DNA from: Candidatus Pacearchaeota archaeon
GTDB lineage: Archaea > Nanobdellota > Nanobdellia > Pacearchaeales > GW2011-AR1
Assembly: GCA_041659265.1 (NCBI GenBank)
Contig: JBAZYP010000003.1
Location: 101,221 to 165,220, forward strand
Length of the DNA stretch: 64,000 nt
Direction of reading: 5' to 3'
This document shows, piece by piece, positions 7,492-50,786 of the stretch (position 1 is the first letter of the stretch; each line of letters starts with the position of its first letter). The notes below the pieces were generated by a model. That model saw nothing but the letters and a program-made list of their open reading frames with translations, had not been told where the DNA came from and searched no databases. A program made the position numbers and the translations under genes.

Positions 7492-7493
7492 TT

Positions 7494-11651: not shown

Positions 11652-11714
11652 AATAATTCTTTTATTTTTTATTCAAGTTCTCTTAATAAATATTCATAAA
11701 TATCAAGTAGGCCA

Positions 11715-20094: not shown

Positions 20095-20096
20095 TT

Positions 20097-20411: not shown

Positions 20412-20752
20412 TCCTTTGCTCTTAATTCATCAAGAACAATTCTTACTAGTTCTCTATCATCAGATCTTAAATCAGAGGGTTCAACTTTTTCAAGTTCAAC
20501 TTTTCCATCAATTGATTTTTCTCTAACAAAAACTTTTGGACAGATTAATCCCCCAGGAATTTTTATTGAACTTTCTTTTGAATATGATCCTTCATTAGAT
20601 TTTTGATAAAATGAAATTCCTAGATTTTGATATTTACTAGCAACTTCTGAAAAATCTTCTTGAGTTTCATCTATTCTTCCTGAATAGAACCTAATGTCAT
20701 ATTGTTTTCCATTAGGTACAACTTTAACTTCTTTTAAATTTGGATTTAACAT
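20393..20752 (-). CDS. Hypothetical protein, 119 aa
   Basis: ORF track. Overlaps both neighbours. Confidence 0.35.
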   Translation of the reverse strand: MLNPNLKEVKVVPNGKQYDIRFYSGRIDETQEDFSEVASKYQNLGISFYQKSNEGSYSKESSIKIPGGLICPKVFVREKSIDGKVELEKVEPSDLRSDDRELVRIVLDELRAKEWKEAK

Positions 20753-33530: not shown

Positions 33531-36500
33531 TTATTCAGTAAAAATTCTTGTCTTGATAAATTGCCGCATTGCATCAGGATTTCTATATTCTGTGAATGCA
33601 GCAGGAGTGAAGGTATCTTCTACAAATGTTTCAGGGTTTCTTATGACTAAAGAAACTGTACCATCAGATTCTAATCTATAAAGTTCATGATAAATTGGTC
33701 CAGATGGGGTATTTTGTATAGTATAAAACGCAGGATTTCGTTCACTAATTGGTTTTGCAAGTTCTGCAATTACTCTGTCAGTTACATCAAATGCACCAGC
33801 ATTATCAATATTAGTATACTTCTTTACTAATGCCGGATCAAGCATACCAATATATGCTCTCTGGTGCTCAGGTAATGTAACTGAAATCATTTTGGAATAT
33901 TCCTTGCCTGAAACAGGATTTAAAACTGATTCAGACAATATTTCATCAAACATTCCATACATTTCATTTCTTCTTATAATTAAACTTGCATCTTTTGATG
34001 TACCCCATCTTCCAATTTCTCTAAGGTTACCAAAAAAGTCTCCTGTTGGAGAATCAAAAGTGCTCATTGAACCTGCAACTTTTCCATCAATCTGGATATT
34101 ATAAGTTTCAGCACGGCCAACTTTATTCAAAATCTTTTGTTTTGTATAAACTGCATAGGGTCTTAGTTTTTCATTTGCAGCATTAGCATAATCAATAAAA
34201 ACAACTTCTGCATTCTCAACAAGATCTGCTGAAGCAACAACTCGTGATTGTGATATTGGATGTATTGCAGATTGAGAAAATCTTGCAGCAGGTTCTGAGT
34301 TATAATATTTCATCAAGGCACGTCTTGCATCCGGATGTTCTCTTATGAATGCATTTGTCATTTCTTCAGGATTAAATATATCTACAATATCTGCACTATC
34401 AATATCAGATAAAATTTTTGATAATTCCTCACCTTGATAATTATTTAAGACATAATCTTTAAAATCCTCGGTAAGTGCGCTAACATCTGTCAACTTTTTT
34501 GAACCAAACTGCATTCTTCTAGCTCTATCAGTTAAAGTCTTAAGTTCTTTGAAATATACCTTTTCTAATTCACGTTCAACTCCAGTGTCATCAATTAGGT
34601 TACGTAGAGCTGTTGTTCCATCAGGATTCTTTACTCTTACTTTAATATCAGGAAAAGTTATTGTTCCACCATTTGCAGCTGGTTCGAATTTAAGATTAGA
34701 GAAATCAGCATGATTCCTTAAAATATTCTCAGCTCTTGTTGGATATTTTCTTTTTAATCCAGAATTAATCTTTACAATATCTGCTTCTTCAATAATTATT
34801 GTTCCTGATTTTCTTACTTGGAGTGATGGATTATTAAAAAAACCAGTACCTGTTGGTGTTTCTAATAAGTTCTTTAATTGATTTGTTGCTGCAAACGGAT
34901 CTTCCATGTTCCTTATAACTTTCATAGCATCATATTGTTTATAGAAAATATCTGCCTCAGCCTTTGTAAGCTTGGATAGACTTCTGTACATTTTTTCAGC
35001 ATGAGTCCTTTCAACAAGATCAATTATTTCCTCTGCAACATCAACAGCTGAACTTTCAATTTCTGCAGCTGTAGCTGTAGATTTGCCTCTAAAAATCCTC
35101 CATCTTGATGTTCCGTCAGGAGCAGGAGTTGTTTTTAAAACAAGAATAACTTCATCTGCAACCTTGCTTTCTAATACTCCAACCCTGGTAAGGATATTTG
35201 TTCCTACTCTTTTTATAATCCTCAATGTAAAAGGAAGAGCTTTAGAAAGTACAGCTCCTGTAGCAATATTAAAAAGACCTTCTCCAACATCTGTAAGGAC
35301 AGCATCAGTCATACTATCATATTCTTCAGGGTTTAATTTGTATCTTATTGCATTTACTCCACCTGTAAAATAAAATGGCAGTTCCAACATTGTTTGCATC
35401 AATGCAGCATTTCCATTATAACCATTTGCCATTTCAATATAATCAGAACCAACAGTTTCATCAGATACTGAAACAATTTGACTGTCATGAACATACCAAC
35501 CAACTATCACGAGATGATATGCACCATGACCACCTTCATAGACTTTATCTTTTTTTGCTTTAAAAGAAGTCTTAACCTTAAGATTCTCATGGATATAAAC
35601 ATCTTCTGGTGTTGTTCTTTTTCCTGCTGCAACCTGAAGGTCTTTAAAAAAACTAAAGCACATAGAGAAAATAGTCTTAGGGTCAGCTACCCCATAATCA
35701 TTTACAATAGGATAACTTATCTGTACTTTTCTTACAATTTTTAATTTCTCTAATGCTTTCATCTCTGCATCTGAGATAAGATTGTAGTTCCTGATATATT
35801 CAAATTTCTGTTCCTTGGTAATATCAGTTCTTAATGCAGTTTTCGATGAAAGATCAATCGCTTTCATTAATTTTGCCCATGCATCTTTTGGATGAATATT
35901 ATAATCCACAAATCTTCCTTGCATATTTTGTGCATTTACTTTTATTATAGGTAACCTAGAAAAATAATAATCTGCAATTTCTTGATATGTTGCACCATCA
36001 GGACCATAATTAAAACTTCTCGGTTTATCATCAAACTCTTTATAGACCGAGTAATAGTTTATCGGGCAAACCTCCGGATCAGTTATAACTTTTCCTGTAA
36101 ATCCAACATCGTATAAATAACCAGTGCCACATGAAAATTCCAGACTAGGATTTAGTTTAAGATCTGTTATGCATAAAGCTTTTTCACTATTGCAAGTCGG
36201 ACATTTGAGTGTTAACATTTTTTTTGAAAAATAACCATTAAATATCTCACGAAAGTAACCATTAGGATTATTTGATAGGGATTTTGTTGTAATAGTATTA
36301 TCAGAATTAGTTAATAATAGAGAACAAGAGCCAGCTGACTTTGTTGCTCCACGCAAGACAAAAATATTATATTCATTATAAGGTAGGAAGAAGACATCTT
36401 TTTCACTTGTAGTGGGACTAACTAAAAACTCAATATTTGTCCATGTTAGTTCAGGTGTAATATTGCATGTACCAGTTTGGCAAGAATTTATACGAGGACT

Positions 36501-39500
36501 TTTAAGGAGCTTTATTTCTGTTGACTTGCTTGTAAAAGTTGTGCATAATTGGTTTGTTTTTAGATAATCATTGATAAGAGTAAAGATTTCAGCTCCAGCA
36601 GATGTTTGAGTACCGTTAATAGCTGTATATGTTAAGCTGTTGCAATCATTATAAAAATCCAATCTTGGCTGATAACTTGAATTTGTCTCATTAGTAGTAT
36701 ATTTAATTATGACTGAAATAGAACTTGAATACAATGATAAATTATTCAATAAAGGAATTATTCTGTTGCAAAGTGTACAATCACTTGGATTGTCTGTTGT
36801 GAAGATAATATTTCCACAAGACTGTGGAACTGAATAAATATAATTAACATTAAATGTACTTGTTGTTTCTATAGAGGGCATTACTGATGTAAAATTCATG
36901 TACCTAGTTTCATTAGGTTTTAGAGTAACATTATAGTCTCCAATAATGAATGAACCCGTAGGAGGATGGATATGATATGTTAAGTTTATATCAAGATAAT
37001 TGAACAATTCAATTGACCCATTGAATAATTTACCTACTTCAAAATTTCTTGCATAAATCCATTGAACACTAGTCCCATTAGAGCCATTTTTCCACATGTT
37101 TCTGACATAACTTTCTCCTTTGTTGCAATATTGATTGCATCCACATTGAGAGTTCGAAGTGCACGAATCATTGATTATCTTGCATGAGGATCTTGTTGAT
37201 TCACTTCCATTACAACATCCGATTTTTCCAGATATTGAGCAATTATTAAAAATTGGTACTTTTAAACAAGTTCCATTGAAACTTTCTTTTGGTTCAGCTT
37301 TAAAGACAAAATTATATGTATCAGATATATCTGAACTAATACTACATTCAAGAGGATTATTATTTATATAATTATTTACACATGATTCAAATCCAACAGT
37401 ACCAGAGCAGACTTTTCTATTATCTCTATTTAATGCAACCGGATAGTTTGATAAGCCATATCTTGTTTCAAATCTTGTTTTACAATATTTCTGTATATAT
37501 CCATTATAACTAGAGGTTGCAAAGTCAAAAATATTAAAAGATCTAAAAGGTAGGGGATATATGTTCTGCATTATTTTTATGATATGATTAATTGTTTTTT
37601 GTCTTGTTAAACAAACACTTTCAGCTTTTGAATCATATAATATTTTTATGCAATTCATTCCACCAGGTACTGAGAGATCTAATTTATTTATACCTTTTTG
37701 AGGTATTGATTTTTTAATCTCAAAAACAAAACTATAATCTAAAAAATTAGTAGCATAATTAAAATTAATTATTTTATTCTGTTTAGCTAAAATTGTTCCT
37801 TTAATGGGTTCATTAATAAAATTTGAAGCTTCTACTCCAATTAAAATCTGACTAGTATCATAATAAACACTTTTTAAGATTACTTCATACTTTATTGGCA
37901 CATCAAAAGGATTTGATATGACTATAGGTTCTGTAATAAGTTTTCCAGGTTTAATGTTCAAATATACAAAATCATTACCTTTTTTTATGATTTTTTCACT
38001 ATTATAATACTTGCAATATTCACAACTTGAACAGGCTTGATTATTTTGAGAACAAGTTTTTCCAATGACTTTTGTACAAATTCCAGATGAACATTTTCCA
38101 GATTTTATTACTCCTTTTCCATTATAAGGATCTTTTTCATAAAATGTACATGACTTTCCATTTTTAGTCGAGTCAGCAATACAACCTGCATTTGGATTAT
38201 TAATATCGCATGTTTCACATTCAGAACAAACTTTAGAAATTCTATCAGCTCTTAAATATGCCCAATCAAAAATACCTGAATATGAATCTCTTAGGACAAG
38301 ATCAGGAAGAAAGGAGTATTCAACAATTATATCTCTGTTGGAAATAACTCCAAGACTATCCTGTTTATAACATTTTTTTGGGGGATTAGCGGGTGGAGAA
38401 CATTTATTTCCTGATTGAGAACAAACATAGGATGTTGTATATTGATCTGTTCTAGAATGTACAGTAACTTTATACCATCCAGAAGTATTGAAAATTTTGC
38501 ATGTATTGCTTGCAGTGCAAGGTATTTCAGTTCTTTCATAATTATATATTGGAGGGTAAGAGATATCACATCTATAGGTTTTTGTTTCAGTCTGAGTACA
38601 TTTTTTTGGTACAGGGCAGATTGGATTAGGAGTATTACAAGTACTAATATTAGAACAATAAGCCATACCCCAACATTGATGAATGCACGCCCCATTAGAG
38701 CATTGCTGACAATTATTTTTTTGTTTACATTGATCTATTATAGAACTAGTTAATGATGTTTGATTATAATAACATGATTCGCAAAGGTTTGGATTAGGAC
38801 TTTCACTTAAAGATTGACCATTAAAACAAAATGAACAGCTGCCATTAATAGCAGGCATAGTTGATGAACAATTTCCATTAGAACATGTTTGACAAGCTGT
38901 ATAATTGCATTTTGATTTGCATGCACCACCATTGCATGTCTGACATCCAGTGCAGGTTGAAGTGCAATTCTTTTTTGAAGAATCATATTGTAAACAATTA
39001 CTTTCACTGCAAGTAGAACACTGAGTGCCATTCCAAGGAAGTCCTTTCTTGCAATCAAATGAACAATTTCCAGGATCATCAACAATAGCAAAACCAGTTA
39101 TTGCATCAGCGGTTATAGTTGGTTTTTCTTTTCCAAGAAATAATCCTTTAATGAATTTATTAAAGCCTACTAACCTTTCTCCAAAAGATTTTTCATTAGG
39201 TTCTTTTTGTGTTATTATTACTTCTGGTTTAATTTCTTCATTTTCTTCTACGGGTTTTAATGAACTTAATGTACCTAAATTATCTATTTCATATTCACAT
39301 TGACATTCATCTTTTATTGAACTTACAAGAGTCCAGGTTCCACATCTTCCTCCGCATCCATCTTCACTGCATGAATATATATTATTTGAACAATGAGGGA
39401 CACAGGTTCCATCGCATACTCCATTAGTACATGTTTGACCTACTTGACAAGTTCCACATGTTCCAGAACATCCATCTGATCCACAAGTCTTTCCAGCACA

Positions 39501-40937
39501 ATTTGGAATGCAACTTCCAACACATTGTCCATTAGTGCATGTTTGACCTACTTGACAAGTTCCACATGTTCCTCCACATCCATTATCTCCACAAGTCTTT
39601 CCAGCACAATTTGGAATGCAACTTCCAACACATTGTCCATTAGTACATGTTTGACCTACTTGACAAGTTCCACATGTTCCTCCGCATTCATTATCTCCGC
39701 AAGTCTTTCCAAAACAATTAGGTAAACATGATGGCCCACAAACTCCATTATTGCAAAAATTACCAATCATACAAGTCCCACAGCTTCCTGAACATCCATC
39801 AGATCCACAATTTTTTCCAGCACAATTAGGTAGACAACTTTGATAACATAAACCTGATTTACATTCATAATTAGTTGGACATGTTCCGCATGTTCCTCCA
39901 CATCCATTATCTCCACAATATTTTCCAGAACAACTAGGAATACATGATGGATTAGAACATTGATAATTAGAATTACAAACTAATGGAGAAGTGCATGTTC
40001 CACAAAATCCAGAACAACCATCTGGACCACATTGTTTATTGGTGCACGATGGAGTGCAGGTAGTTATACAGTTGCCATTTGAACAGGTTTGACCAATTGG
40101 ACATATTCCACAAGTTAGATAAGATCCACATCCATCAGACCATGAGCCACAAGATTTTCCAAGTATAGGACATGTTGTTGGAGTGCATGGATTAATTGGA
40201 GGAAGAATTGGATTAGTGATTGGTGTTGTAGGGTTTGTTGGATATGAAGGAGGAGTTAATATTGGAAGAGTAAAAATATAATTATAATCAGAAGTTATAT
40301 CACTTGCAGATATTGCAGAATTATATACTCTAACTTCATCTATAGCACCTTTAAATGGATACCATAAACTACTTCTTCCATCACCAAAAGAAAATTTATA
40401 TGTTGAATAATAAGTTACAGTTCCAGGAGCATTTAATGTATTATCTAAAACTCCATCAATATAAATCTTCATAGATGTTCCATCATAAGTAAAGACTAGA
40501 TTATACCAAGTGTTATCAAGAAGTTTTTTTATTGAATAGACTGATTTTTGGGTTCCAGCAATATTCATTGAAAATATTATCCTTCCATCAGACATGAAAC
40601 CAAAATAAGGTAAATGCTGACCCATAAACATATTATATGTATTCAGTGAAGAATATCTTTTAACCCATAAAGAATAAGTCATCTGATTACCTTTTCCTGT
40701 AAGTAAATCTTTTGTTTCTAATCTGGATAAACCATCAAATGACAAGGCTTTTCCATTCTTGCCTTCAATAAAAGTTGTTGTACCAACAACTGTAGCAGGA
40801 TTTGTTGGATTATAAAAATCAATTATGCTATCATCAAATTTATAATGAATTATAGGACTAACAGCGCTAATATTTAAAATATTAGCTAATATTATCCCTA
40901 ATAAGATTACGAATATCCACACTCTTTTACTTGTCAT
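33531..40937 (-). CDS. Giant 2468-aa secreted/surface protein: signal peptide, LamG/concanavalin-A-like jelly-roll domain, Pro/Thr linker, about 8 tandem 36-aa Cys-rich repeats, a long Cys- and N-x-S/T-rich region, and a roughly 1100-aa Cys-poor C-terminal region
   Basis: N-terminal MTSKRVWIFVILLGIILANILNISA. LamG-like WYNLVFTYDGTSMKIYIDGVL. Repeats CxPNCAGKTCGxDGCxGTCGTCQVGQTCTNGQCVGS. Single uninterrupted ORF. Confidence 0.8.
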   Translation of the reverse strand: MTSKRVWIFVILLGIILANILNISAVSPIIHYKFDDSIIDFYNPTNPATVVGTTTFIEGKNGKALSFDGLSRLETKDLLTGKGNQMTYSLWVKRYSSLNTYNMFMGQHLPYFGFMSDGRIIFSMNIAGTQKSVYSIKKLLDNTWYNLVFTYDGTSMKIYIDGVLDNTLNAPGTVTYYSTYKFSFGDGRSSLWYPFKGAIDEVRVYNSAISASDITSDYNYIFTLPILTPPSYPTNPTTPITNPILPPINPCTPTTCPILGKSCGSWSDGCGSYLTCGICPIGQTCSNGNCITTCTPSCTNKQCGPDGCSGFCGTCTSPLVCNSNYQCSNPSCIPSCSGKYCGDNGCGGTCGTCPTNYECKSGLCYQSCLPNCAGKNCGSDGCSGSCGTCMIGNFCNNGVCGPSCLPNCFGKTCGDNECGGTCGTCQVGQTCTNGQCVGSCIPNCAGKTCGDNGCGGTCGTCQVGQTCTNGQCVGSCIPNCAGKTCGSDGCSGTCGTCQVGQTCTNGVCDGTCVPHCSNNIYSCSEDGCGGRCGTWTLVSSIKDECQCEYEIDNLGTLSSLKPVEENEEIKPEVIITQKEPNEKSFGERLVGFNKFIKGLFLGKEKPTITADAITGFAIVDDPGNCSFDCKKGLPWNGTQCSTCSESNCLQYDSSKKNCTSTCTGCQTCNGGACKSKCNYTACQTCSNGNCSSTMPAINGSCSFCFNGQSLSESPNPNLCESCYYNQTSLTSSIIDQCKQKNNCQQCSNGACIHQCWGMAYCSNISTCNTPNPICPVPKKCTQTETKTYRCDISYPPIYNYERTEIPCTASNTCKIFNTSGWYKVTVHSRTDQYTTSYVCSQSGNKCSPPANPPKKCYKQDSLGVISNRDIIVEYSFLPDLVLRDSYSGIFDWAYLRADRISKVCSECETCDINNPNAGCIADSTKNGKSCTFYEKDPYNGKGVIKSGKCSSGICTKVIGKTCSQNNQACSSCEYCKYYNSEKIIKKGNDFVYLNIKPGKLITEPIVISNPFDVPIKYEVILKSVYYDTSQILIGVEASNFINEPIKGTILAKQNKIINFNYATNFLDYSFVFEIKKSIPQKGINKLDLSVPGGMNCIKILYDSKAESVCLTRQKTINHIIKIMQNIYPLPFRSFNIFDFATSSYNGYIQKYCKTRFETRYGLSNYPVALNRDNRKVCSGTVGFESCVNNYINNNPLECSISSDISDTYNFVFKAEPKESFNGTCLKVPIFNNCSISGKIGCCNGSESTRSSCKIINDSCTSNSQCGCNQYCNKGESYVRNMWKNGSNGTSVQWIYARNFEVGKLFNGSIELFNYLDINLTYHIHPPTGSFIIGDYNVTLKPNETRYMNFTSVMPSIETTSTFNVNYIYSVPQSCGNIIFTTDNPSDCTLCNRIIPLLNNLSLYSSSISVIIKYTTNETNSSYQPRLDFYNDCNSLTYTAINGTQTSAGAEIFTLINDYLKTNQLCTTFTSKSTEIKLLKSPRINSCQTGTCNITPELTWTNIEFLVSPTTSEKDVFFLPYNEYNIFVLRGATKSAGSCSLLLTNSDNTITTKSLSNNPNGYFREIFNGYFSKKMLTLKCPTCNSEKALCITDLKLNPSLEFSCGTGYLYDVGFTGKVITDPEVCPINYYSVYKEFDDKPRSFNYGPDGATYQEIADYYFSRLPIIKVNAQNMQGRFVDYNIHPKDAWAKLMKAIDLSSKTALRTDITKEQKFEYIRNYNLISDAEMKALEKLKIVRKVQISYPIVNDYGVADPKTIFSMCFSFFKDLQVAAGKRTTPEDVYIHENLKVKTSFKAKKDKVYEGGHGAYHLVIVGWYVHDSQIVSVSDETVGSDYIEMANGYNGNAALMQTMLELPFYFTGGVNAIRYKLNPEEYDSMTDAVLTDVGEGLFNIATGAVLSKALPFTLRIIKRVGTNILTRVGVLESKVADEVILVLKTTPAPDGTSRWRIFRGKSTATAAEIESSAVDVAEEIIDLVERTHAEKMYRSLSKLTKAEADIFYKQYDAMKVIRNMEDPFAATNQLKNLLETPTGTGFFNNPSLQVRKSGTIIIEEADIVKINSGLKRKYPTRAENILRNHADFSNLKFEPAANGGTITFPDIKVRVKNPDGTTALRNLIDDTGVERELEKVYFKELKTLTDRARRMQFGSKKLTDVSALTEDFKDYVLNNYQGEELSKILSDIDSADIVDIFNPEEMTNAFIREHPDARRALMKYYNSEPAARFSQSAIHPISQSRVVASADLVENAEVVFIDYANAANEKLRPYAVYTKQKILNKVGRAETYNIQIDGKVAGSMSTFDSPTGDFFGNLREIGRWGTSKDASLIIRRNEMYGMFDEILSESVLNPVSGKEYSKMISVTLPEHQRAYIGMLDPALVKKYTNIDNAGAFDVTDRVIAELAKPISERNPAFYTIQNTPSGPIYHELYRLESDGTVSLVIRNPETFVEDTFTPAAFTEYRNPDAMRQFIKTRIFTE
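39422..39745. repeat. Three near-identical 108-bp tandem DNA repeats inside the giant gene, each encoding one 36-aa Cys-rich module
   Basis: Read directly: CATTAGT(R)CATGTTTGACCTACTTGACAAGTTCCACATGTTCC ... CACAAGTCTTTCCAGCACAATTTGGAATGCAACTTCCAACACATTGTC repeated at 39422, 39530 and 39638. Confidence 0.8.
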
Positions 40938-41034: not shown

Positions 41035-41937
41035 ATGGAACAAATGAATCGAACCTCTTTTTATGATCAAATTTCTTCGAATAAATGGAAATCTGTTGTT
41101 TTAATGTCATTAGTATTTATTGTTTTAATTGCAATTGGAGCTATTATTGGTTTAGTTTTAGGTCCAGATTATTTTTTCTTTATAATGATTATTTCAATAA
41201 TAATTTCTATTGTCTATATCTGGATGGGTTATTTTCATTCAGCAGATTTAGCAATAGCTTCTGTTGGAGCAAAGATTGCAGATAGGGTTCATTACAAACA
41301 ATATTATCATTCAGTTGAAGGTTTAACTATGGCTTCAGGTTTACCAATGCCAAAATTATATGTTATGGAAGATAATAATATTAATGCATTTGCTTCAGGA
41401 AGAGACCCAGAACATGCTGTTATTTGTATAACTACTGGTGCTTATAATAAACTTTCAAAACAAGAATTAGAAGGAGTTTTAAGTCATGAACTTTCTCACA
41501 TAGCTAATTATGATATAAGGTTCATGACTCTAACTGCAATATTAGTTGGAATGATTGCAATAATTTCTGAAATATTTTTAAGAAGTTTATGGTTTAAAGA
41601 TTCAGGTTCAGATGATAATGGTTGGAATTTAGCATTAATAATAATTGGTATTGCTATGGCAATAATTGCCCCTATCATTGTTAAATTAGTTCAATTAGCA
41701 ATCTCTAGAAAAAGGGAATACATGGCAGATGCTTCCGCAGTTAAATTCACAAGATTCCCAACTGGTTTAGTTGGTGCATTAAAAAAAATAAAGACTGAAA
41801 CATCCGCTCCTGCTGAAAAAGTATCTTCAGCTATTGCTCCATTATTTATGGCAGACCCATTCAAGAGAAATTTCGATGGCCTTTTTTCAACTCATCCACC
41901 TCTTGAAAAAAGAATAGCAATGTTGGAACGTATGTAG
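41035..41937 (+). CDS. htpX: HtpX-like M48 zinc metalloprotease (membrane)
   Basis: LEGVLSHELSHIANYD contains the HExxH site within the typical HtpX membrane topology. Confidence 0.8.
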   Translation: MEQMNRTSFYDQISSNKWKSVVLMSLVFIVLIAIGAIIGLVLGPDYFFFIMIISIIISIVYIWMGYFHSADLAIASVGAKIADRVHYKQYYHSVEGLTMASGLPMPKLYVMEDNNINAFASGRDPEHAVICITTGAYNKLSKQELEGVLSHELSHIANYDIRFMTLTAILVGMIAIISEIFLRSLWFKDSGSDDNGWNLALIIIGIAMAIIAPIIVKLVQLAISRKREYMADASAVKFTRFPTGLVGALKKIKTETSAPAEKVSSAIAPLFMADPFKRNFDGLFSTHPPLEKRIAMLERM

Positions 41938-41979: not shown

Positions 41980-42168
41980 TCAGAAGAACATAATAAAACA
42001 TCCACCAAAAAATATTAAAAATATCAAAACCGCAATTATTTGAAACCCAATTTTAATATACCTTCTTCTAATAATAAATATACCATAATGTCTATAAATA
42101 AAGAAATATGTTACAGGAATAAGTAACGTTAATACAATTGTATATTCGCCAATTCTTAAAGAATCCAT
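41980..42168 (-). CDS. Small membrane protein, 62 aa
   Basis: Hydrophobic. Confidence 0.25.
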   Translation of the reverse strand: MDSLRIGEYTIVLTLLIPVTYFFIYRHYGIFIIRRRYIKIGFQIIAVLIFLIFFGGCFIMFF

Positions 42169-42289
42169 AATAACTATTAATAAAAATTAGAATATCACTA
42201 ATAAGAAAAATATCCCAATACCAATAAATATATCTAATATCCTTTTCTTATTAGAATCATAATAATCTAAACCTTGTTCTTCAAACATT

Positions 42290-42706
42290 TCAAATCTTTC
42301 CTTTCATTATTCTATTGACATAATAAGCCCAAACAATAGTAATTAAAAGTATTAAATAAGCAATTGAAAAATACATATGAGGTTTAGTATAGGCCATTGC
42401 CTTGAATACAACAATCAATAGTAATAATAATGGTGATATGAATGCAAGACTAAAACTACCTAGTAAAATAAATTCACTTTTCTTATATAAAAATAAACCT
42501 ATTAATAATACGATAGTTAAACCAATTGAAGAAGGAATTCCTGTAATATTCATATTCATTCTTTTTTCTAAAATCATTCCACCAAACATAAATAATGATT
42601 GGATTATAACTACAATAACAATACCAATAAAGAAATATTTTAAGACATTATTTTCTTCAGATTTATTTTTTGAAACTGGTTTCTTATTTACAACCTTCTT
42701 TTTCAT
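42290..42706 (-). CDS. Membrane protein, 138 aa
   Basis: K-rich N-terminus followed by 3-4 TM helices. Confidence 0.35.
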   Translation of the reverse strand: MKKKVVNKKPVSKNKSEENNVLKYFFIGIVIVVIIQSLFMFGGMILEKRMNMNITGIPSSIGLTIVLLIGLFLYKKSEFILLGSFSLAFISPLLLLLIVVFKAMAYTKPHMYFSIAYLILLITIVWAYYVNRIMKGKI

Positions 42707-42751: not shown

Positions 42752-43543
42752 CTAATATTTTTTTATTAACTTTAAACAATTTCTAAAAATTTCTTTTTCT
42801 CTATTGAAAAATATAACAAAATATATCACACATATTAATGAAAATATCTGGAAAAAGGTTAGTCCGAATAATATTACTTTTTCAATTCTAATAAATTCAA
42901 TAAAAAATCTAAAAGTAAAATAACTTATCATTAATTGTCTGAATAATTCACCAGGTTTAGGATTTTGTCTTTTTGCATATAATAAATAAAAAAACATTAT
43001 TAACATAAAAATAGATTCATATATTTGAGTAGGATGTCTTAAGATCTTATCACCAAAATCAACCCCCCAAGGTAATGTTGTTGGTTTCCCATAACAACAT
43101 CCTCTCAAAAAACAACCAATTCTTCCAATTGCTACACCTAATGCAATTGCAGGAGCAAATAAATTTCCTTTTCTTTCTTTTAATTTTAAATGTTTTTTAG
43201 CTATAAAAACTCCAATCATTCCACCGATTAATCCTCCGGTTATTGTCCTTCCAGAAAGAATCACCATGGGGTTTGTTATATTCGCAAGTATAAACTTATA
43301 ATTTAATATCCATATTGGTAATTTAGCACCAATTGCTCCACCAACTATTGCCGCAAGAGCAATATAAAATGTATTTTCATTTGCACTTTTATTTTTTCTA
43401 GCTTCAAGATAATAAATATAAGAACCAACAACAATTGCTAAAAGCATAAATGTCCCATAAGAAGGAATTTTTATTCCAAAAAAATTAAATAAATAAGGAT
43501 AAACTCCCCAATCATCTCCAGGAATTAAATGTTCATCAATCAT
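42752..43543 (-). CDS. lgt: Prolipoprotein diacylglyceryl transferase (Lgt) homolog
   Basis: AIGRIGCFLRGCCYGK vs the E. coli Lgt signature GLGRLGNFINGELWGR. ILRHPTQIYESIFML vs LPRHPSQLYELLLEG. SYFTFRFFIEFIRIE vs GYGAFRIIVEFFRQP. Confidence 0.85.
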   Translation of the reverse strand: MIDEHLIPGDDWGVYPYLFNFFGIKIPSYGTFMLLAIVVGSYIYYLEARKNKSANENTFYIALAAIVGGAIGAKLPIWILNYKFILANITNPMVILSGRTITGGLIGGMIGVFIAKKHLKLKERKGNLFAPAIALGVAIGRIGCFLRGCCYGKPTTLPWGVDFGDKILRHPTQIYESIFMLIMFFYLLYAKRQNPKPGELFRQLMISYFTFRFFIEFIRIEKVILFGLTFFQIFSLICVIYFVIFFNREKEIFRNCLKLIKKY

Positions 43544-44085
43544 TTTTTATGTTTAAAGACACAACATCCAGTTGTCATGCAATTATATATTTTTATTCCA
43601 CCACAAAAACCAAAACTTGATGCTGTCTTTAACAAAGCTAAAAAGAATAATATAACAAATCCAATTCTTTCATTAATATAATACAAAAATATTAATGCAA
43701 TAAAACTAAATATTGCCCCTAATAGATTAGCAAAAATAACAGCCTTTCTATCATAAGTATCTTTTTTAGATTTCATTAATTTTTCTACTGTATTTTCAAA
43801 TAATAATACAAATGGATTATATTCAGTTTTTAATGTAACTGCAATAAGAATTAAAACAAATCCTAATAAAGCAATTTCTTTAATTTGAAAAATTATTGCA
43901 AGGAAGTATAAAATAGCTATTATAATTTTTGAAAATCCTAGCGAATATCTTGATATTGAAAAAAATCTTTCATTAGTAAATCCGCCAGCTTTAATAATAG
44001 TATCAACAATTCTTTTTTTATCATCGCAAAGATCTTTATAAGACTCTTGATATACTCTTTTTGCTATTTTTTCTCTATCACTCAT
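43540..44085 (-). CDS. Membrane protein (4 TM) with a Cys-rich C-terminal tail
   Basis: C-terminus FGFCGGIKIYNCMTTGCCVFKHKK. Start overlaps the lgt stop. Confidence 0.4.
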   Translation of the reverse strand: MSDREKIAKRVYQESYKDLCDDKKRIVDTIIKAGGFTNERFFSISRYSLGFSKIIIAILYFLAIIFQIKEIALLGFVLILIAVTLKTEYNPFVLLFENTVEKLMKSKKDTYDRKAVIFANLLGAIFSFIALIFLYYINERIGFVILFFLALLKTASSFGFCGGIKIYNCMTTGCCVFKHKK

Positions 44086-44090
44086 TTTTA

Positions 44091-44738
44091 TTATCTTTTA
44101 TAAAATATCTTATTTAAATTAGGAAAAAACATTCCTACATTATTCTGATATTCTTTATAATTTTTAAACTCTTCTTTCAATAATTTCTCTTCTTGTTTAG
44201 CCCTATAATACATGAATGGAACAAATACAAATGTATTTATTAAAAAACACATGTAATTAGAATAAGCTAGACTTCCTCCATAAAACATCCAGATTAATGA
44301 AGCATATAATGGATGCCTTACAATAGAATATAATCCACTTGTTACAAGGGTATGATCTTTATAGATTTTAATTTGATTGGACCAGTTTTTTCCTAGATTA
44401 AATCTACCTTTAACATTAAAATAAGCACCAAAGACAATCAAGAAAGTTCCAAATATAAGCATAATTAATCTTAGATTAACATTCTTTATTTCAAAATTAC
44501 CTATTCCAAACCTAATAAGGTTTGAATATATAAAAAAGAATAAGAACATGCTTCCTGTTTCAACAATAGATTTCTTTTTCTTTTTTTCATTCTTTCTTGG
44601 ATGAAATTCAATAAAATCAATTATTATAGCAACAATAACAACTAACATTGATAACATAATTAATAATGACATGGATAATGTAAATATTCCAATAGGAGTT
44701 TTTACAAGTTCTTTAACAATCTCAATATTTTTTATCAT
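44091..44738 (-). CDS. Isoprenylcysteine carboxyl methyltransferase (ICMT)/phospholipid methyltransferase-family membrane methyltransferase
   Basis: LVTSGLYSIVRHPLYASLIWMFYGG ... EEKLLKEEF is the C-terminal ICMT-family signature (RHPxY ... E). Confidence 0.65.
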   Translation of the reverse strand: MIKNIEIVKELVKTPIGIFTLSMSLLIMLSMLVVIVAIIIDFIEFHPRKNEKKKKKSIVETGSMFLFFFIYSNLIRFGIGNFEIKNVNLRLIMLIFGTFLIVFGAYFNVKGRFNLGKNWSNQIKIYKDHTLVTSGLYSIVRHPLYASLIWMFYGGSLAYSNYMCFLINTFVFVPFMYYRAKQEEKLLKEEFKNYKEYQNNVGMFFPNLNKIFYKR

Positions 44739-44739
44739 A

Positions 44740-45021
44740 TTAATTATATTTTTTATTGATCTGCTCTATTCTCTTTTTAATTATATAATAAGTTATTAAG
44801 AATATTATAAGAAAAATTGAAAAAACAAAAATCATTGATAGGGATTGATTATCAAACATATTTTTTAAATAGGGATTTGTTTCAGCAAAATCTACTAATA
44901 TTACTCCAACAAAACCAACAGGAATGCACGAACCAACAAAAACTAATGGTCCTACAATAAATATTGTCAATAAAATTAATATCATTCTTGTTACAGGCCT
45001 CTTAATTTTTTCTTCATCCAT
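44740..45021 (-). CDS. Small two-TM protein, paralog 1 of a six-member tandem family (lipobox-like VGSC motif, C-terminal KKYN)
   Basis: MDEEKIKRPVTRMILILLTIFIVGPLVFVGSCIPVG ... KKYN. Confidence 0.5.
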   Translation of the reverse strand: MDEEKIKRPVTRMILILLTIFIVGPLVFVGSCIPVGFVGVILVDFAETNPYLKNMFDNQSLSMIFVFSIFLIIFLITYYIIKKRIEQINKKYN

Positions 45022-45490
45022 ATTTTTCTTTGATAAATTTAATTGTTTTTATTACAACAAAAAATGCTAAAATAGTCCCTATTACTAATCCTGCTAGAAG
45101 ATATACCTCTGCTTTTGTGCTATAAATGTTCTGAGTAGTTACACCATAAAATCCAATAGGAAAACATGATCCAACAAAAACTAATGGTCCCAATATAAAA
45201 ATAGTTATTAAAATTCTTATTTTAATTTCAATTCCACTTTTTGTTTCTCTATTTTTGCTATTAGCATAAATATTATCAAAATGGAAATATAATCCACTTA
45301 ATACAAGAATAATCGATATAATAAAAATTAGAATCTGAATTAATTTTAAAATAAAATAAAAATCACGGAATTGACTAGTTCTAATAAACTCAATAATTAA
45401 AAATAAAATTAAATTTATAAATAAAATTAAAAAAAAATAATTTAATAATTTGCCTTTTTGTCCTTGATTATTAATATTTTTTTCATCCAT
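45014..45490 (-). CDS. Paralog 2, with an extra N-terminal TM region and an internal GPLVFVGSCFP motif
   Basis: ILGPLVFVGSCFPIGFYG ... IKEKYG. Confidence 0.45.
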   Translation of the reverse strand: MDEKNINNQGQKGKLLNYFFLILFINLILFLIIEFIRTSQFRDFYFILKLIQILIFIISIILVLSGLYFHFDNIYANSKNRETKSGIEIKIRILITIFILGPLVFVGSCFPIGFYGVTTQNIYSTKAEVYLLAGLVIGTILAFFVVIKTIKFIKEKYG

Positions 45491-45923
45491 TTTTTAAATC
45501 TTTAATAAATTTATATATAAAAAATAATGCTAGAAAACAAAATAGGAAAAATGACAGATATCCAGTTATCTCTTCTCTTGATTCTTTTGGAAATATTGAA
45601 GAATAGGTAAAAAAAGGAATTAATACTAATAACATATATCCTATAAAAAAATAAATAATATAATTATTAAAGAACTTTTTAATTATATATTTGGATTTTG
45701 TTGGATCCTGTTTATAGAATTTTAATATTTTTAAAATCAAAAATGCAGATATTAAGCCACAAAATAATGAAAGAAAAGGTAAAATTAAATCATAATTATT
45801 AAAATACGTGCTAGAGATTCCTAGGGGTAAGCAAGAACCTAAAAATATTAAAGGACCAATTAAAAATAAAATTAAGATAACAAATAAAACTTTTGATATT
45901 TTAGATTTTTTTCCTTCATCCAT
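45483..45923 (-). CDS. Paralog 3, with a C-terminal extension
   Basis: MDEGKKSKISKVLFVILILFLIGPLIFLGSCLPLG. Confidence 0.45.
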   Translation of the reverse strand: MDEGKKSKISKVLFVILILFLIGPLIFLGSCLPLGISSTYFNNYDLILPFLSLFCGLISAFLILKILKFYKQDPTKSKYIIKKFFNNYIIYFFIGYMLLVLIPFFTYSSIFPKESREEITGYLSFFLFCFLALFFIYKFIKDLKNG

Positions 45924-46164
45924 ATTTTTTATTAATTAACTTAATCAAATAAAAAACAACTAATATTCCTAAACCTAATCCAACTATCCATGACCCATAA
46001 AAGATTATCATTCCAAAGAATTCAGAACTTCCGCCTTCAGATAAAGTAAAACCAAATAAACCTAAAGGAAAACATGCCCCAACAAAAACTAATGGTCCTA
46101 CAATAAATATTGTCATTAATATTAAAATTATCTTCAATCCCGAACTTTTTTTATTCTTAACCAT
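45916..46164 (-). CDS. Paralog 4
   Basis: MVKNKKSSGLKIILILMTIFIVGPLVFVGACFPLG ... INKKYG. Confidence 0.5.
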   Translation of the reverse strand: MVKNKKSSGLKIILILMTIFIVGPLVFVGACFPLGLFGFTLSEGGSSEFFGMIIFYGSWIVGLGLGILVVFYLIKLINKKYG

Positions 46165-46624
46165 ATTTTCTAATAATTTTATTTATTATAATATAAGCTA
46201 TAGATAATATAACTATAACTCCAAAAGATCCGATAATTAGGGTTGGTGAGGAAATAATCCTAAAAATATCTTGAAAAGATATAACTTCTCTAAGTAAATA
46301 AAAAAAGATTATTAATAAAACCAATAATAATAAACCAAAAATTATTTTTATATGAAGATCAATTTTACCAACTTCATAATATTTTTTTATAGCTTTAATT
46401 GTTTTTATTACAACGTATATAGCTAAACCTAATCCAATTATCCATGATGCAAAAAATAATCCAATCCATAAATTTGCTATAGTTCCTCCTCTTTCATAAG
46501 AATTCATAAAACCAAGCATACCTACAGGAAAACATGCTCCAAAAAAAACAAGTGGCCCTACAATAAAAATTGCAAGGAATATGAGAACAATTCTACTGGT
46601 TGGAATTTTTTCACTTTTACCCAT
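46157..46624 (-). CDS. Paralog 5, with a C-terminal extension
   Basis: MGKSEKIPTSRIVLIFLAIFIVGPLVFFGACFPVG ... IIRKYG. Confidence 0.5.
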   Translation of the reverse strand: MGKSEKIPTSRIVLIFLAIFIVGPLVFFGACFPVGMLGFMNSYERGGTIANLWIGLFFASWIIGLGLAIYVVIKTIKAIKKYYEVGKIDLHIKIIFGLLLLVLLIIFFYLLREVISFQDIFRIISSPTLIIGSFGVIVILSIAYIIINKIIRKYG

Positions 46625-46697
46625 AAATACTAATATGCATTTGAGCTTATAAATATTGTTTATTTTATAATCTTAATAATTTTCTTTTTATTTTCTA

Positions 46698-46937
46698 TTA
46701 ACTAGTTTCATTAGAATTTTTATTAATTAAATAGAATAAACCAATAATGATTAAAGCAGTTATTAATATGGCTATCAGGACAGCTATTGAGAGATTTTCC
46801 GGGAATTGAACTCCTCCGTCCGAATATAAACTTAATCCAAATAAAACCGGAATACAAGATCCAACAAATACAATAGGTGCAATTATGAATAATACTAAAA
46901 TCATCAAAATTAGTTCTTTTAATTTTTTATTCATCAT
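46698..46937 (-). CDS. Paralog 6
   Basis: MMNKKLKELILMILVLFIIAPIVFVGSCIPV. Confidence 0.45.
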   Translation of the reverse strand: MMNKKLKELILMILVLFIIAPIVFVGSCIPVLFGLSLYSDGGVQFPENLSIAVLIAILITALIIIGLFYLINKNSNETS

Positions 46938-46962
46938 TTTTATGATATTTAAATAATTTAAT

Positions 46963-48330
46963 CTATCTCTCCATTTTCCTATAAATCATATTATACGTTG
47001 AAAATGGAATTTTTTTCAAATCTGGTGTTAAGATATGCACACATTCTTTTTGTATGGATTTCATATCAAAATTATATCTATCAACAAAAGAAGTTATACT
47101 TATCCTAAATGTATTATTATTATAATATTCTTTTCTTTCAGATTCTGATTTTTTATCTAATCCTTTAGGAATAAGAAACTTTAATTCACTTAAAAAATTA
47201 AAATAATTACAGCAAGAACCAGAACAACTCTTTAATTTTTCTTTTAATTCATCTGCATTAAAATTAAATGTATTATTTATTATCCCTAAATATTTTTTAG
47301 GATCAAATTTCCTTGTTAAAGGAACAACTCTATTTTTATCCCTGTACATATAATTTACACTGACTCTATCAACATCACAAGGTAGTGGAAAAAAATCACT
47401 TTTTTTTAATAATCCATTAGTTTGTTTTTCTATTTCTGAAATTATTCCAGTTATAGTTATTCTATTTTTTGTATTAATTTCATTTATTCTACCAAAATAA
47501 GCTACGGGTTGAAAATTTATTCCTCTTATTCCAGGCTTATTTAAAGAAAATTCAACTATTTTTCCTATTTCCTTATCATTAACCCCCCTTTCTATTGTAG
47601 AAACAATTGTTATTGGTATCTTATGTTCAATTAAATTAGTCATTGCTTTTAATTTCATTTCAATAATATTTTTCCCTCTTAATTTTTTTGTTGCAATATC
47701 ATCAAAACCATCAAATTGCAAATATATTTCAAAACCTGATTTAAATTTAGCTAGTTCATTAACAAATTCCTTATCCTGTGAAATTCTTAACCCATTTGTA
47801 TTAAGCATTACATACTTGAATTTTTTTTCAAGAGCCATTTTAATTATTTTTAATATATCTTTATGCATGGTTGGTTCTCCACCAGATATCTGTAAGACTT
47901 CTGCAGAATTATTTTCACTTGTTTGATAAAAATCCATCATTTTTTCTAATATCTTTAAATCTAAATAATTCTTTTTTCCAGAATTAGCATAACATACTGG
48001 ACAATTTAAGTCACAATCATTAGTTACTTCAATTAAACCAATGCAAGTGTGCTGATCATGACTATTGCATAAACCGCAATCATAAGGACAACCCCTAACT
48101 ATTTTTGTCTGGATTAGGCTTTTTGTTCCAGGTTTAGTATATTCATTTCTCGTTTTGTAATAATTACTATCCTCTTCCAATAGTTCTTCATGTTCACCAT
48201 GTGTAAAACAATGTTTTAAAACAAATATTTTACCTTCTTTTTCAATAATCTTTCCAGGGATTCTTTTTTCACATATTGAACAAAGAGTTGTAGTTGATTC
48301 TAAAAACAAATATCCTCTTTCTCTATCCAT
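46963..48330 (-). CDS. Radical SAM enzyme with an N-terminal Cys/His zinc-ribbon-like region and a C-terminal Cys cluster
   Basis: CxxxCxxC at TNDCDLNCPVCYA, followed by QISGGEPT (SAM glycine-rich motif). N-terminal CSICEK ... HCFTH. C-terminal CSGSCC. Confidence 0.75.
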   Translation of the reverse strand: MDRERGYLFLESTTTLCSICEKRIPGKIIEKEGKIFVLKHCFTHGEHEELLEEDSNYYKTRNEYTKPGTKSLIQTKIVRGCPYDCGLCNSHDQHTCIGLIEVTNDCDLNCPVCYANSGKKNYLDLKILEKMMDFYQTSENNSAEVLQISGGEPTMHKDILKIIKMALEKKFKYVMLNTNGLRISQDKEFVNELAKFKSGFEIYLQFDGFDDIATKKLRGKNIIEMKLKAMTNLIEHKIPITIVSTIERGVNDKEIGKIVEFSLNKPGIRGINFQPVAYFGRINEINTKNRITITGIISEIEKQTNGLLKKSDFFPLPCDVDRVSVNYMYRDKNRVVPLTRKFDPKKYLGIINNTFNFNADELKEKLKSCSGSCCNYFNFLSELKFLIPKGLDKKSESERKEYYNNNTFRISITSFVDRYNFDMKSIQKECVHILTPDLKKIPFSTYNMIYRKMER

Positions 48331-48389
48331 TATTTTTTATAATAACTGATATTTATAAATTAGATTATAATTTATGTATAATTTTTTCC

Positions 48390-49040
48390 CTAAAATATCC
48401 CTTGATTATATAGCTGATTTATCAAATATTCTTGATCTGGATTATGTTTTAATATAGCTTCTTTAATTTTATCTTTATCAGGAGTTTCAATAACTCCACT
48501 TACAAACTTATCATTTTTTCGAGTTGTTGCAGCATCATAAAAATCAATTACAGATAAGATTCTTGCAGATATCATAATCATGGCTTCAGAACCTTTTGAC
48601 CAGTCTACATCAGGATGAGGAATATGCTCTGGATAACCATGTTCCTGGAACCAGTGATGATATAATAAGACTCTAGCAGAAAAATCATGCACTCCCCTTA
48701 AGATTCTATATCCATCTATTGGATGTTTTTTTAATTCTTTCTTGTCCTTATCATCAAATCCTATTTTTTTCTTTAATGATTTAGGATTTGTTAATGCTTT
48801 ACCTACATCATGCAATAAACCTGGATAAAATAATCCCTTTGGTTCAATAATATGAGTAAATTCAGCAACTTCTTCGCCCTTTAAACCTACTCTAATGGAA
48901 TGTTCATAGGTTTCAATATCTCTATATTTTATCAAGTTTAGATATGTATTTATCGATTCTCTTTGTTCATTAGAAATTTCCAAATATTCATAACTTTTCA
49001 ATAATCTAGCTTCTAAACTATCATTTTCCATATTTTTCAT
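48390..49040 (-). CDS. HD-domain phosphohydrolase (HD-GYP-like)
   Basis: H ... GLLHDVGK (HD motif) and LLYHHWFQEHGYPEH (HH ... GYP). Confidence 0.55.
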   Translation of the reverse strand: MKNMENDSLEARLLKSYEYLEISNEQRESINTYLNLIKYRDIETYEHSIRVGLKGEEVAEFTHIIEPKGLFYPGLLHDVGKALTNPKSLKKKIGFDDKDKKELKKHPIDGYRILRGVHDFSARVLLYHHWFQEHGYPEHIPHPDVDWSKGSEAMIMISARILSVIDFYDAATTRKNDKFVSGVIETPDKDKIKEAILKHNPDQEYLINQLYNQGIF

Positions 49041-50259: not shown

Positions 50260-50592
50260 CTATCCTTTGATAATATTACAAATTTTATCTTCTACTTCTT
50301 TAATTTTATTTTTATTAATTTTTCCAGCCTTGTATAGGATTATTGATTCTCTAAGTGTAAATAAGATTGAAGGTTTTATATGACTATTAATTTTTAATCC
50401 GCCATTTGAAAAGTCATTATCTGTTAAATCTATCTGATAAGGATCAGGATGATATTTTGAAGTAATTTGACAAAGAATAATATCTTCTCCTTTTAAATTT
50501 GCAACAACAAGAGCAGGTCTTTTTATTGAAGATTTTAAGTCTGAAAAAGGGAATGGTGTTACAACGACATCACCTTTTACAAATTTTTCCAT
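50260..50592 (-). CDS. mazF: MazF/PemK-family toxin, second copy
   Basis: GDVVVTPFPFSDLKSSIKRPALVVA. Confidence 0.7.
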   Translation of the reverse strand: MEKFVKGDVVVTPFPFSDLKSSIKRPALVVANLKGEDIILCQITSKYHPDPYQIDLTDNDFSNGGLKINSHIKPSILFTLRESIILYKAGKINKNKIKEVEDKICNIIKG

Positions 50593-50786
50593 GCGATTTC
50601 ATCCTCTTTACTTAACCAATTTTTGGAAAGAAGATCTTCATCAGCATAAATATTGGATTTTATGCTTTCAAGTTCTTCAATTCTTTTTTGCACACATCTT
50701 CGGACAAACTCACTCCATTTAATTTCAGAATATTTTCGCATTTTTTTATAAACTTCATCATCAATTGATAATGTAATATTAGTCAT
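50577..50786 (-). CDS. Antitoxin, ribbon-helix-helix-like
   Basis: MTNITLSIDDEVYKKMRKY. Overlaps the toxin start by 16 nt. Confidence 0.45.
   Translation of the reverse strand: MTNITLSIDDEVYKKMRKYSEIKWSEFVRRCVQKRIEELESIKSNIYADEDLLSKNWLSKEDEIAWKNL

Follow-up and report, generated by a model that had tools for sequence, protein, structure and literature searches.

A widely conserved membrane cassette of an Lgt paralog, a Tes-like radical SAM enzyme, an ICMT-like methyltransferase, a DUF4395 protein and Cys-module mini-proteins, found in a Pacearchaeota archaeon and in anaerobic bacteria

The DNA considered here is a stretch of 64,000 nt (the window) of the 224 kb contig JBAZYP010000003.1, which belongs to the metagenome-assembled genome (MAG) of a Candidatus Pacearchaeota archaeon, and the subject is a minus-strand operon in which genes for an enzyme of the radical S-adenosylmethionine (SAM) type (hereafter rSAM), six small membrane proteins (mini-proteins), an ICMT-like methyltransferase, a DUF4395 protein and an Lgt-like transferase follow one another. 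There is little doubt that it is an instance of a membrane cassette of five components that has been conserved widely. The cassette joins parts of bacterial lipoprotein lipidation, archaeal tetraether synthesis and CaaX-type methylation, three pathways that are not known to occur together, and it is retained in the ultra-small genomes of the candidate phyla radiation (CPR) and of the DPANN archaea (Diapherotrites, Parvarchaeota, Aenigmarchaeota, Nanoarchaeota as well as Nanohaloarchaeota). The host is an archaeon, since the Pacearchaeota contig also encodes the ribosomal proteins L35Ae and L10e, of the archaeal/eukaryotic type, ~16 kb away. The operon had been outlined in a preliminary description made from the sequence alone, whose domain calls (HD, Radical_SAM, ICMT and LGT) are borne out by profile searches, which also assign its Cys-tailed membrane protein to DUF4395.

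The window rSAM has thousands of relatives at 50-60% identity. From a scan of one genome per GTDB species, the best 80 of 285 rSAM relatives were taken as the locus set; open reading frames (ORFs) were called in each locus and then searched with the window proteins. In 70 of the 80 loci the genes come in the sequence rSAM, ICMT-like, DUF4395, Lgt-like, all on one strand and for the most part overlapping, and the conservation in relatives that the preliminary description had asked about is thereby established. Contig ends interrupt most of the other 10; those left over show rearrangements (L072, L077) or have no DUF4395 (L056). More specifically, L072 (Verrucomicrobiae) has an ICMT-DUF4395 fusion ORF at 11331-12404 with the Lgt gene relocated upstream, L056 (Moranbacteria) has a split Lgt at 11374-12755, and L077 encodes a differing Lgt-like type ('GRIGCFLAGLNDGTYG') at 2217-2969, upstream of the rSAM gene.

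About 67 of the 80 loci are bacterial and 13 are archaeal. The former come from CPR, Clostridia, Bacilli, Bacteroidales, Chlorobi, Ignavibacteria, Cloacimonadales, Omnitrophota, Elusimicrobia, Actinobacteria, Desulfobacterales and Verrucomicrobia, and the latter from Woese-/Nanoarchaeota, Methanosarcinales MAGs (L044, L061) and one unclassified archaeon; all hosts are anaerobes, and cultured isolates are among them. The archaeal peculiarity implied by the preliminary description is thus not upheld, the same cassette being present in bacteria at 50-60% identity. The HD-domain gene at the head of the operon, which had been taken as part of the system, also has to be left out, as its homologs adjoin the cassette only in L001 and L002, both of the same organism. 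Its 'HD(-GYP-like)' label holds as far as an HD domain is concerned (42.9 bits for the generic HD model, with the HD and HHW.QEHGYP residues readable in the sequence) and fails for HD_5 (PF13487), at 19.9 bits against a cut-off of 27.2. Besides the fifth gene dealt with below, clustering of unassigned ORFs yielded antisense ORF artefacts only as recurrent neighbours. Two proteases were considered as linked to the cassette and rejected, namely HtpX, found in the window, and a presenilin/signal-peptide-peptidase gene (PF06550) that lies directly after the Lgt-like gene on the same strand in L085 (8229-9116) and L086 (3585-4472), neither of which recurs in other loci; the PF06550 gene, confined to one DPANN lineage, is a candidate intramembrane protease for the Cys-module helix described next.

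Clustering of the unassigned neighbours brought out the fifth component, a membrane protein of 95-140 amino acids (aa) encoded directly downstream of Lgt in 49 loci, with a clostridial variant in the same place in 7 further loci (56 in total by clustering); once motif searches and manual inspection are added, it is found in ~62 of 64 evaluable loci. Family members have an N-terminal 'YYTTxGKKVxDFxxGF' motif, three transmembrane (TM) helices, a basic '[KR][KR]R[FY]IAIG' loop and a last helix that ends P(-7)...G(-2)-x-C (P-x4-G-x-C), followed by a tail of 4-15 residues, and two tandem copies are frequent. No Pfam or NCBIfam model covers the family. Its conservation is confined to the module surrounding the Cys, i.e. 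a basic n-region, a helix of ~20 residues with Pro at -7 and then G-x-C, and such a conserved Cys module with a variable remainder looks like the behaviour of a substrate.

The six small proteins of the window, whose ORFs both NCBI and JGI annotate as genes, share an invariant P-x2-F-x-G-x-C-x-P motif, and their genes share an 80-nt DNA repeat family (61-84% identity), so that they are true paralogs, as had been proposed. The corresponding DPANN family is small (30 clusters among 5.8 billion proteins); wherever the context is readable, one to three copies per relative are found, placed after the rSAM gene and before that of the ICMT. The Cys is invariant in 35 of 35 unique sequences, which answers the question, raised beforehand, of its conservation in the family. 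In profile-profile comparison the DPANN mini-proteins align with the fifth family in register (n-region, helix and G-[SA]-C) with a probability of 86.8% and E=4e-6, against probabilities of at most 1% for controls with other membrane families. The six window paralogs therefore appear to be a rare DPANN version of the fifth-component module: in one DPANN sublineage the fifth component was probably replaced by a version with two TM helices, encoded after the rSAM gene, and then amplified, to six copies here. The idea of a substrate encoded beside its machinery is strengthened accordingly, with a Cys-module mini-protein as the universal fifth member of the cassette.

By the lipobox rule (of the PROSITE PS51257 type), a lipoprotein signal has K or R in the n-region, an uncharged h-region and the pattern [LIVMFWSTAG]2-[LIVMFYSTAGCQ]-[AGS]-C, with the Cys at 15-35. 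Five of the six window paralogs fit this pattern, with Cys at 28-32, and in the sixth the motif comes after an N-terminal extension; the pattern is also present in 48 of 55 fifth-family members, there at the C-terminus. On simple hydropathy and the positive-inside rule, the mini-protein Cys is predicted at the outer end of its helix (outer leaflet), and the sequence after it is hydrophobic, forming a second TM helix or the tail of 4-15 residues.

Downstream of Lgt the window also holds what may be remains of the older arrangement, and the operon reaches 41980, beyond the end given in the preliminary description. A Cys-less protein of 138 aa (42290-42706) is related to the fifth family, and L007, L062 and L083 have homologs of it within the cassette. 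At 41980-42288, 33 N-terminal codons and an ORF of 62 aa share one frame and are split by a TAA at 42187-42189, and the read-through product matches the fifth-family hidden Markov model (HMM) over its full length (46.7 bits, E=3e-16). It looks, from these reading frames, as if the ancestral fifth-family gene is decaying here while the new type expanded to six; the TAA could instead be a sequencing error or be read through, in which case this would be no pseudogene.

The Lgt-like protein of the window is a clear member of PF01790 (143.2 bits, where the cut-off is 24.9, over model positions 1-238 of 240) and matches the E. coli Lgt structure 5AZB with E=4e-8. It was aligned, together with 69 other cassette copies (70 in all), to an E. 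coli Lgt reference that was typed in and whose numbering is that of the literature, in agreement with the 5AZB alignment. Among the 70 copies Y26 is kept in 68, R143 in 70, G154 in 70, Y235 in 69, R239 in 69 and E243 in 67, the window counterparts being Y29, R141, G152, Y208, R212 and E216. The catalytic-residue check suggested for this 'clear Lgt' thus comes out in its favour, with the HMM passed and equivalents of R143, R239, E243, Y26 and Y235 aligned, and family membership stands. What does not stand is equivalence to the characterised enzyme: the window protein stays under the NCBIfam equivalog cut-offs (TIGR00544 at 83.6 bits, cut-off 118.9; NF000778 at 138.4 bits, cut-off 334; 78.7 and 113.5 bits for the cassette copy of Clostridium bowmanii), has no H103, and carries Cys in place of N146, E151 and L152, a replacement seen in 70 of 70 copies that gives the motif GRIGCFLRGCCYG. 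The periplasmic head domain of E. coli Lgt (residues ~165-192, ~28 residues) has no counterpart in it either.

A 2026 study found Y26, H103, R143, N146, G154 and R239 essential in E. coli Lgt, noted N146C and E151C/D in 'distantly related' Lgts, and reported that the N146C Lgt of L. interrogans partly complements (PMC13251419). Since the Leptospira N146C enzyme is partly functional, the Cys substitutions are the mark of a special clade, whose enzymes need not be inactive. Among the best 150 matches of a search in 1.84 billion representatives, 76 have the C...CC form, 45 of the first 50 included. The same search material contains a second, apparently large Lgt-family clade with N146C and 'GR.GCFL.GL.D.TYG.P' (P0197-P0259), distinct from both canonical Lgt and the cassette clade. 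On these residue patterns the cassette Lgt is best seen as a specialised paralog clade, very probably not the general lipoprotein enzyme, and its Cys triad (Cys144, Cys149 and Cys150 in the window protein) is a possible Zn-thiolate site for thiol alkylation.

Compared with the E. coli system (5AZB/5AZC), the predicted clients share the geometry of lipobox proteins (basic n-region, hydrophobic helix, small residue and Cys, predicted at the outer leaflet), whereas they are dedicated, co-encoded and polytopic, and in bacteria their module is C-terminal. The cassette Lgt also differs from that of E. coli in having no linked Lsp or Lnt, in being always linked to rSAM, ICMT and DUF4395 genes, and in occurring on archaeal contigs as well. 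The statement that archaeal lipoprotein enzymes are essentially unknown, made in the preliminary description, is outdated, as AliA and AliB were described in 2025 (PMC12462473). These Haloferax volcanii proteins likewise act on the lipobox Cys of archaeal lipoproteins, and they have been proposed to resemble Lgt remotely in architecture, but they are not detectable members of PF01790 (HHpred probability 29%; PMC12462473), in contrast to the window protein, which is a clear member and part of a cross-domain cassette.

Over its full length the rSAM is homologous to the tetraether synthase Tes/GDGT-MAS (MJ0619, PDB 7TOL), with E=1.9e-77 over residues 6-452, and in Pfam it matches Radical_SAM (77.9 bits) and Zn_ribbon_HMPTM (49.2 bits). 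This sets aside the possibility, mentioned at the outset, of a housekeeping RNA-modifying enzyme. Its motifs C17x2C20x20C41x2H44, C81x3C85x2C88 and C106x3C110x2C113 have the spacings of the GDGT-MAS rubredoxin, [4Fe4S]N and RS motifs (C9X2C12X20C33X2H36, C73/C77/C80), and so all three spacings of Tes/GDGT-MAS (CX2CX20CX2H, CX3CX2C plus His, and CX3CX2C) are identical. Among the differences from Tes/GDGT-MAS are a C-terminal domain shorter than that of GDGT-MAS, the occurrence of the cassette enzyme in bacteria and in lipid-scavenging CPR and DPANN, and its constant embedding in the cassette. The best-scoring curated model is that of TrsS (NCBIfam, 363 bits against a cut-off of 490), which has a comparable length (441 positions) and is matched from one end to the other, followed by Tes (324 bits, cut-off 450), whose best stretch spans model positions 2-313 of 486 only.

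Since every cassette rSAM tested falls below both cut-offs (335-374 bits for TrsS and 294-338 bits for Tes in the window enzyme and ten cassette orthologs of other phyla), the family appears to form an unnamed third clade beside Tes and TrsS. Identity with TrsS (NF045646) was ruled out on these scores. TrsS is a (seleno)protein; none of the 11 cassette enzymes has an in-frame TGA, and the cassette partners are matched by no companion model of NCBIfam. Mss, the bacterial membrane-spanning lipid synthase, belongs to a different rSAM lineage according to its authors' BLAST. In Methanosarcina acetivorans a second 'Tes homolog', MA_1114, gave upon expression no glycerol dialkyl glycerol tetraether (GDGT) and only trace macrocyclic archaeol (PMC8941075); this protein may belong to the cassette clade, and Methanosarcinales MAGs carry the cassette.

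The methyltransferase matches PF04140 (59.6 bits, cut-off 24) and PF04191 (42 bits), and with 81.1 bits it misses the cut-off of 160 of the NCBIfam protein-S-isoprenylcysteine O-methyltransferase model (NF040696). Its closest solved structure is Ma-ICMT (4A2N, E=1.8e-14), to which VRHPLYA and RAKQEEKLL align, so that the RHPxY...EE cofactor motif is kept. The gene directly follows that of the rSAM in 76 loci. Ma-ICMT itself was considered as a cassette methyltransferase and ruled out, a Methanosarcinales cassette ICMT scoring only 45 bits (Ma-ICMT 45-57 bits). There is a likeness to CaaX processing, in that a methyltransferase of the ICMT family is encoded together with an enzyme of a Cys-lipidating type and that the bacterial clients have their target Cys 4-15 residues from the C-terminus; on the other hand, the cassette transferase is of the Lgt type and not a prenyltransferase, no protease is linked, and the cassette Cys is predicted to be extracytoplasmic while ICMT acts from the cytoplasmic side. 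The DUF4395 protein of the window ends in a Cys cluster, GFC...KIYNC...GCC, and a basic tail, predicted to be cytoplasmic; the pattern G[FY]C-x8-C-x3-7-CC is kept at the C-terminus of 74 cassette copies, and no relative with a solved structure was found. A homolog search with this protein, restricted by a word prefilter, gave 2 proteins.

Taken singly, each cassette enzyme appears to be a divergent member of a known superfamily, and none reaches the curated criteria of a characterised family. The mini-proteins and the gene combination match nothing in Pfam, NCBIfam or the searchable literature, within a search that did not reach the TrsS paper, and are apparently undescribed.

Gene content, conservation, motifs and residue patterns are observed directly, while the chemical steps that follow, and their order, are what we infer from them. 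The best mechanism that can be offered, held tentatively and at somewhat less than even confidence, is lipidation of the mini-protein Cys by the Lgt paralog combined with modification of the lipid by the rSAM and ICMT-like enzymes. Specifically, the Lgt paralog would take a glycerolipid moiety from a phospholipid and attach it to the invariant Cys, giving a thioether-lipidated mini-protein; the Cys is predicted at the outer end of its helix, where the Lgt active site lies. The rSAM and the ICMT-like enzyme would act on the lipid from the cytoplasmic side, before or after this transfer. The Tes-like rSAM would perform radical chemistry at the unactivated end of an acyl or isoprenoid tail, leading to C-C coupling, as in Tes, or to capture by sulfur (C-S), the ICMT-like enzyme would methylate a carboxylate or phosphate, and DUF4395 would serve as a membrane-anchored, Cys-rich partner. 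A stronger and more doubtful claim is that all this constitutes a new protein-lipidation pathway, in which Lgt lipidates the client Cys, the rSAM covalently joins the lipid tail with sulfur or a further lipid and the ICMT-like enzyme caps the product. If true, it would mean a covalent, possibly membrane-spanning protein-lipid anchor in anaerobic bacteria and archaea, and the first functional Lgt-family enzyme in archaea.

A number of observations weigh against lipidation of the mini-proteins in this manner. There is a conflict of topology: the predicted place of the Cys is outside, the rSAM and ICMT depend on SAM from the cytoplasm, and for this reason neither of them can act directly on the Cys. 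Within the Lgt-like protein, H103 is never His in the 70 copies (T in the window; V, T, I or L across the family), and as N146 is replaced too, the reaction may be something other than diacylglyceryl transfer. The rSAM has, in its C-terminal cluster domain, invariant Cys of the cassette family (C318, C374, C430) that differ from those of GDGT-MAS, whose [4Fe4S]C site with the labile Met439 aligns with I-T for C-M, E-C for C-C and S for C (residues mapped by counting by hand on the HMMER alignment); tail-to-tail coupling is not assured, because Met439 and its neighbouring Cys are not kept. Some Bacilli have L or V before the Cys, which the canonical lipobox disallows, and no Lsp gene was found to recur near the cassette across the loci. 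Furthermore, a cassette with 50-60% identity throughout would have to serve both bacterial ester and archaeal ether lipids, unless the DPANN hosts carry bacterial-type lipids, and every chemical step is a proposal made from sequence.

The conflict of topology vanishes if the enzymes act on free membrane lipids, in a cassette devoted purely to phospholipid remodelling: the rSAM would couple or functionalise the tails, the ICMT/PEMT-like enzyme would methylate a head group or a carboxyl, the Lgt-like protein would transfer a glyceryl group, and the mini-proteins and DUF4395 would be structural or regulatory subunits. Lipid-acting members do exist in each family (Tes/GDGT-MAS; the PEMT, LmtA and MddA matches; Lgt, which uses phosphatidylglycerol), and the cassette occurs in lipid-scavenging CPR and DPANN, with a patatin-like phospholipase in the window. 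This explanation is nonetheless rather unlikely, as a Cys module that varies from 1 to 6 copies, and of which only the lipobox-like part is kept, is typical of substrates and not of subunits, and Lgt-family enzymes are known solely as protein-Cys modifiers. An improbable alternative is a pathway of the kind that makes ribosomally synthesised and post-translationally modified peptides (RiPPs), centred on an rSAM that modifies the mini-proteins directly (e.g. by a Cys S-C thioether) with Lgt and ICMT as tailoring enzymes. In DPANN loci the mini-protein genes do lie directly 3' of the rSAM gene and are multiplied like precursor genes, and among the auxiliary clusters of the rSAM its three invariant Cys may form an open site; yet no SPASM (by Pfam), twitch or RRE domain was found on it, the NCBIfam SPASM-maturase matches are limited to its core (residues ~99-285), and it is homologous over its full length to a lipid-binding enzyme. 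In addition, the bacterial small gene sits after Lgt instead of after the rSAM, and the Cys is predicted at the outer face, beyond a cytoplasmic rSAM. The RiPP-like reading, which the preliminary description had also put forward, is therefore weak as far as a classical maturase is meant.

Conserved Cys are so frequent in the membrane components (3 in the Lgt-like protein, 4 in the DUF4395 tail and 1 in each mini-protein, all invariant) that a relay for thiols, metals or sulfur (selenium) might be imagined, i.e. a redox or metal-handling complex that serves the rSAM and involves no lipidation. It would suit the anaerobic hosts and an rSAM whose nearest named relative, TrsS, is a (seleno)protein; we give it little credence, because, of a transferase's catalytic-cavity residues, the Lgt-like protein has kept the phosphate-binding ones and others, the sets of Cys lie on opposite membrane faces and no precedent is known. 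As for general archaeal lipoprotein biogenesis, in which the window Lgt would be a housekeeping enzyme for all lipobox proteins, PF01790 membership and the many lipoproteins predicted for DPANN archaea (PMC12462473) are what speaks for it. It is highly implausible nevertheless: the paralog clade always travels with the cassette, even in bacteria, which are reported to have canonical Lgt universally (PMC13251419), it lies under the equivalog cut-offs without H103, N146 or the head domain, it has dedicated clients, and archaea use AliA/AliB (PMC12462473).

Whatever the chemistry, current statements that Lgt is absent from archaea are contradicted by a clear PF01790 member on a contig that encodes L35Ae, together with 13 archaeal loci among 80. 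A practical consequence concerns lipid biomarkers, as gene-based surveys take the 'Tes homologs' of bacteria, CPR and DPANN for potential producers of GDGTs or branched GDGTs, e.g. at E<1e-50 (PMC8941075; PMC11868695). The cassette clade, with E=1e-77 to MJ0619, would pass this threshold. Its rSAM belongs to a family of its own, whose genes always accompany those of Lgt, ICMT and DUF4395, so that source assignments for paleoclimate lipid proxies could be inflated. The function of the cassette is directly testable, because there are obvious candidate substrates and cultured hosts of a complete cassette, e.g. Clostridium bowmanii DSM 14206, Alkalibaculum sporogenes, Youngiibacter fragilis 232.1 and Mangrovibacterium marinum DSM 28823. 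The six-fold expansion of the client in the window hints at a function in membrane biology among symbionts that scavenge lipids.

The genes of the operon are collected in Table 1. All ORFs of the preliminary description were confirmed on the minus strand with their coordinates, and its 'ten genes' are eleven by its own list. The tight packing that it reported holds for seven junctions: four 8-nt overlaps between mini-protein genes (2/3, 3/4, 4/5 and 5/6), mini-protein 6/ICMT (+1 nt), ICMT/DUF4395 (+5 nt) and DUF4395/Lgt (-4 nt). It does not hold for HD/rSAM (59 nt), rSAM/mini-protein 1 (25 nt) and mini-protein 1/2 (73 nt).

Table 1. Genes of the cassette operon and its flanks in the window, in the order of transcription
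Feature	Coordinates	Strand	Remarks
HD-domain protein	48390..49040	-	PF01966 42.9 bits; co-directional neighbour, outside the cassette
Radical SAM enzyme, 455 aa	46963..48330	-	Tes/GDGT-MAS superfamily
Mini-protein 1, 79 aa, 2 TM	46698..46937	-	Cys28, motif ...APIVFVGSCIP
Mini-protein 2, 155 aa	46157..46624	-	N-terminal Cys module (Cys31) and C-terminal 2-TM extension
Mini-protein 3, 82 aa, 2 TM	45916..46164	-	Cys31
Mini-protein 4, 146 aa	45483..45923	-	Cys module (Cys31) and 2-TM extension
Mini-protein 5, 158 aa	45014..45490	-	N-terminal 2-TM extension, then Cys module (Cys109)
Mini-protein 6, 93 aa	44740..45021	-	Cys32
ICMT/PEMT-family integral-membrane methyltransferase, 215 aa	44091..44738	-	PF04140 59.6 bits
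DUF4395 membrane protein, 181 aa	43540..44085	-	PF14340 52.7 bits
Lgt-family transferase, 263 aa, 'GRIGCFLRGCCYG' clade	42752..43543	-	PF01790 143.2 bits
Cys-less 4-TM protein, 138 aa	42290..42706	-	Fifth-family HMM E=8e-7
Interrupted fifth-family gene	41980..42288	-	Cys module ...RRRYIKIG...FFGGCFIMFF; in-frame TAA 42187-42189

The end of the operon is adjoined by the divergent gene of the HtpX (M48) zinc metalloprotease (41035-41937, plus strand; 311 bits against an NCBIfam cut-off of 355). The M48 family also includes the CaaX protease Ste24. Just upstream of HtpX, a giant secreted protein of 2468 aa is encoded on the minus strand (33531-40937), with an N-terminal LamG-like region and more than 10 Cys-rich 'C..C..GxCGxC' repeats. 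Elsewhere in the window, the patatin-like phospholipase (61271-62077, plus strand, 106.8 bits) may have to do with the scavenging of lipids by a DPANN archaeon. A long minus-strand operon of overlapping genes (13571-21300) encodes mostly unannotatable proteins and a clear SAM methyltransferase, with weak matches to NucS_C, Peptidase_Mx1 and RadC/JAB, and may be a defence or modification island. A further minus-strand operon (5663-8480) encodes a MoxR AAA ATPase, DUF58 and VWA/BatA proteins, and two small overlapping ORFs of 110 and 69 aa (50260-50786, minus strand) resemble, by eye, a PemK/MazF-type toxin and an antitoxin-like partner.

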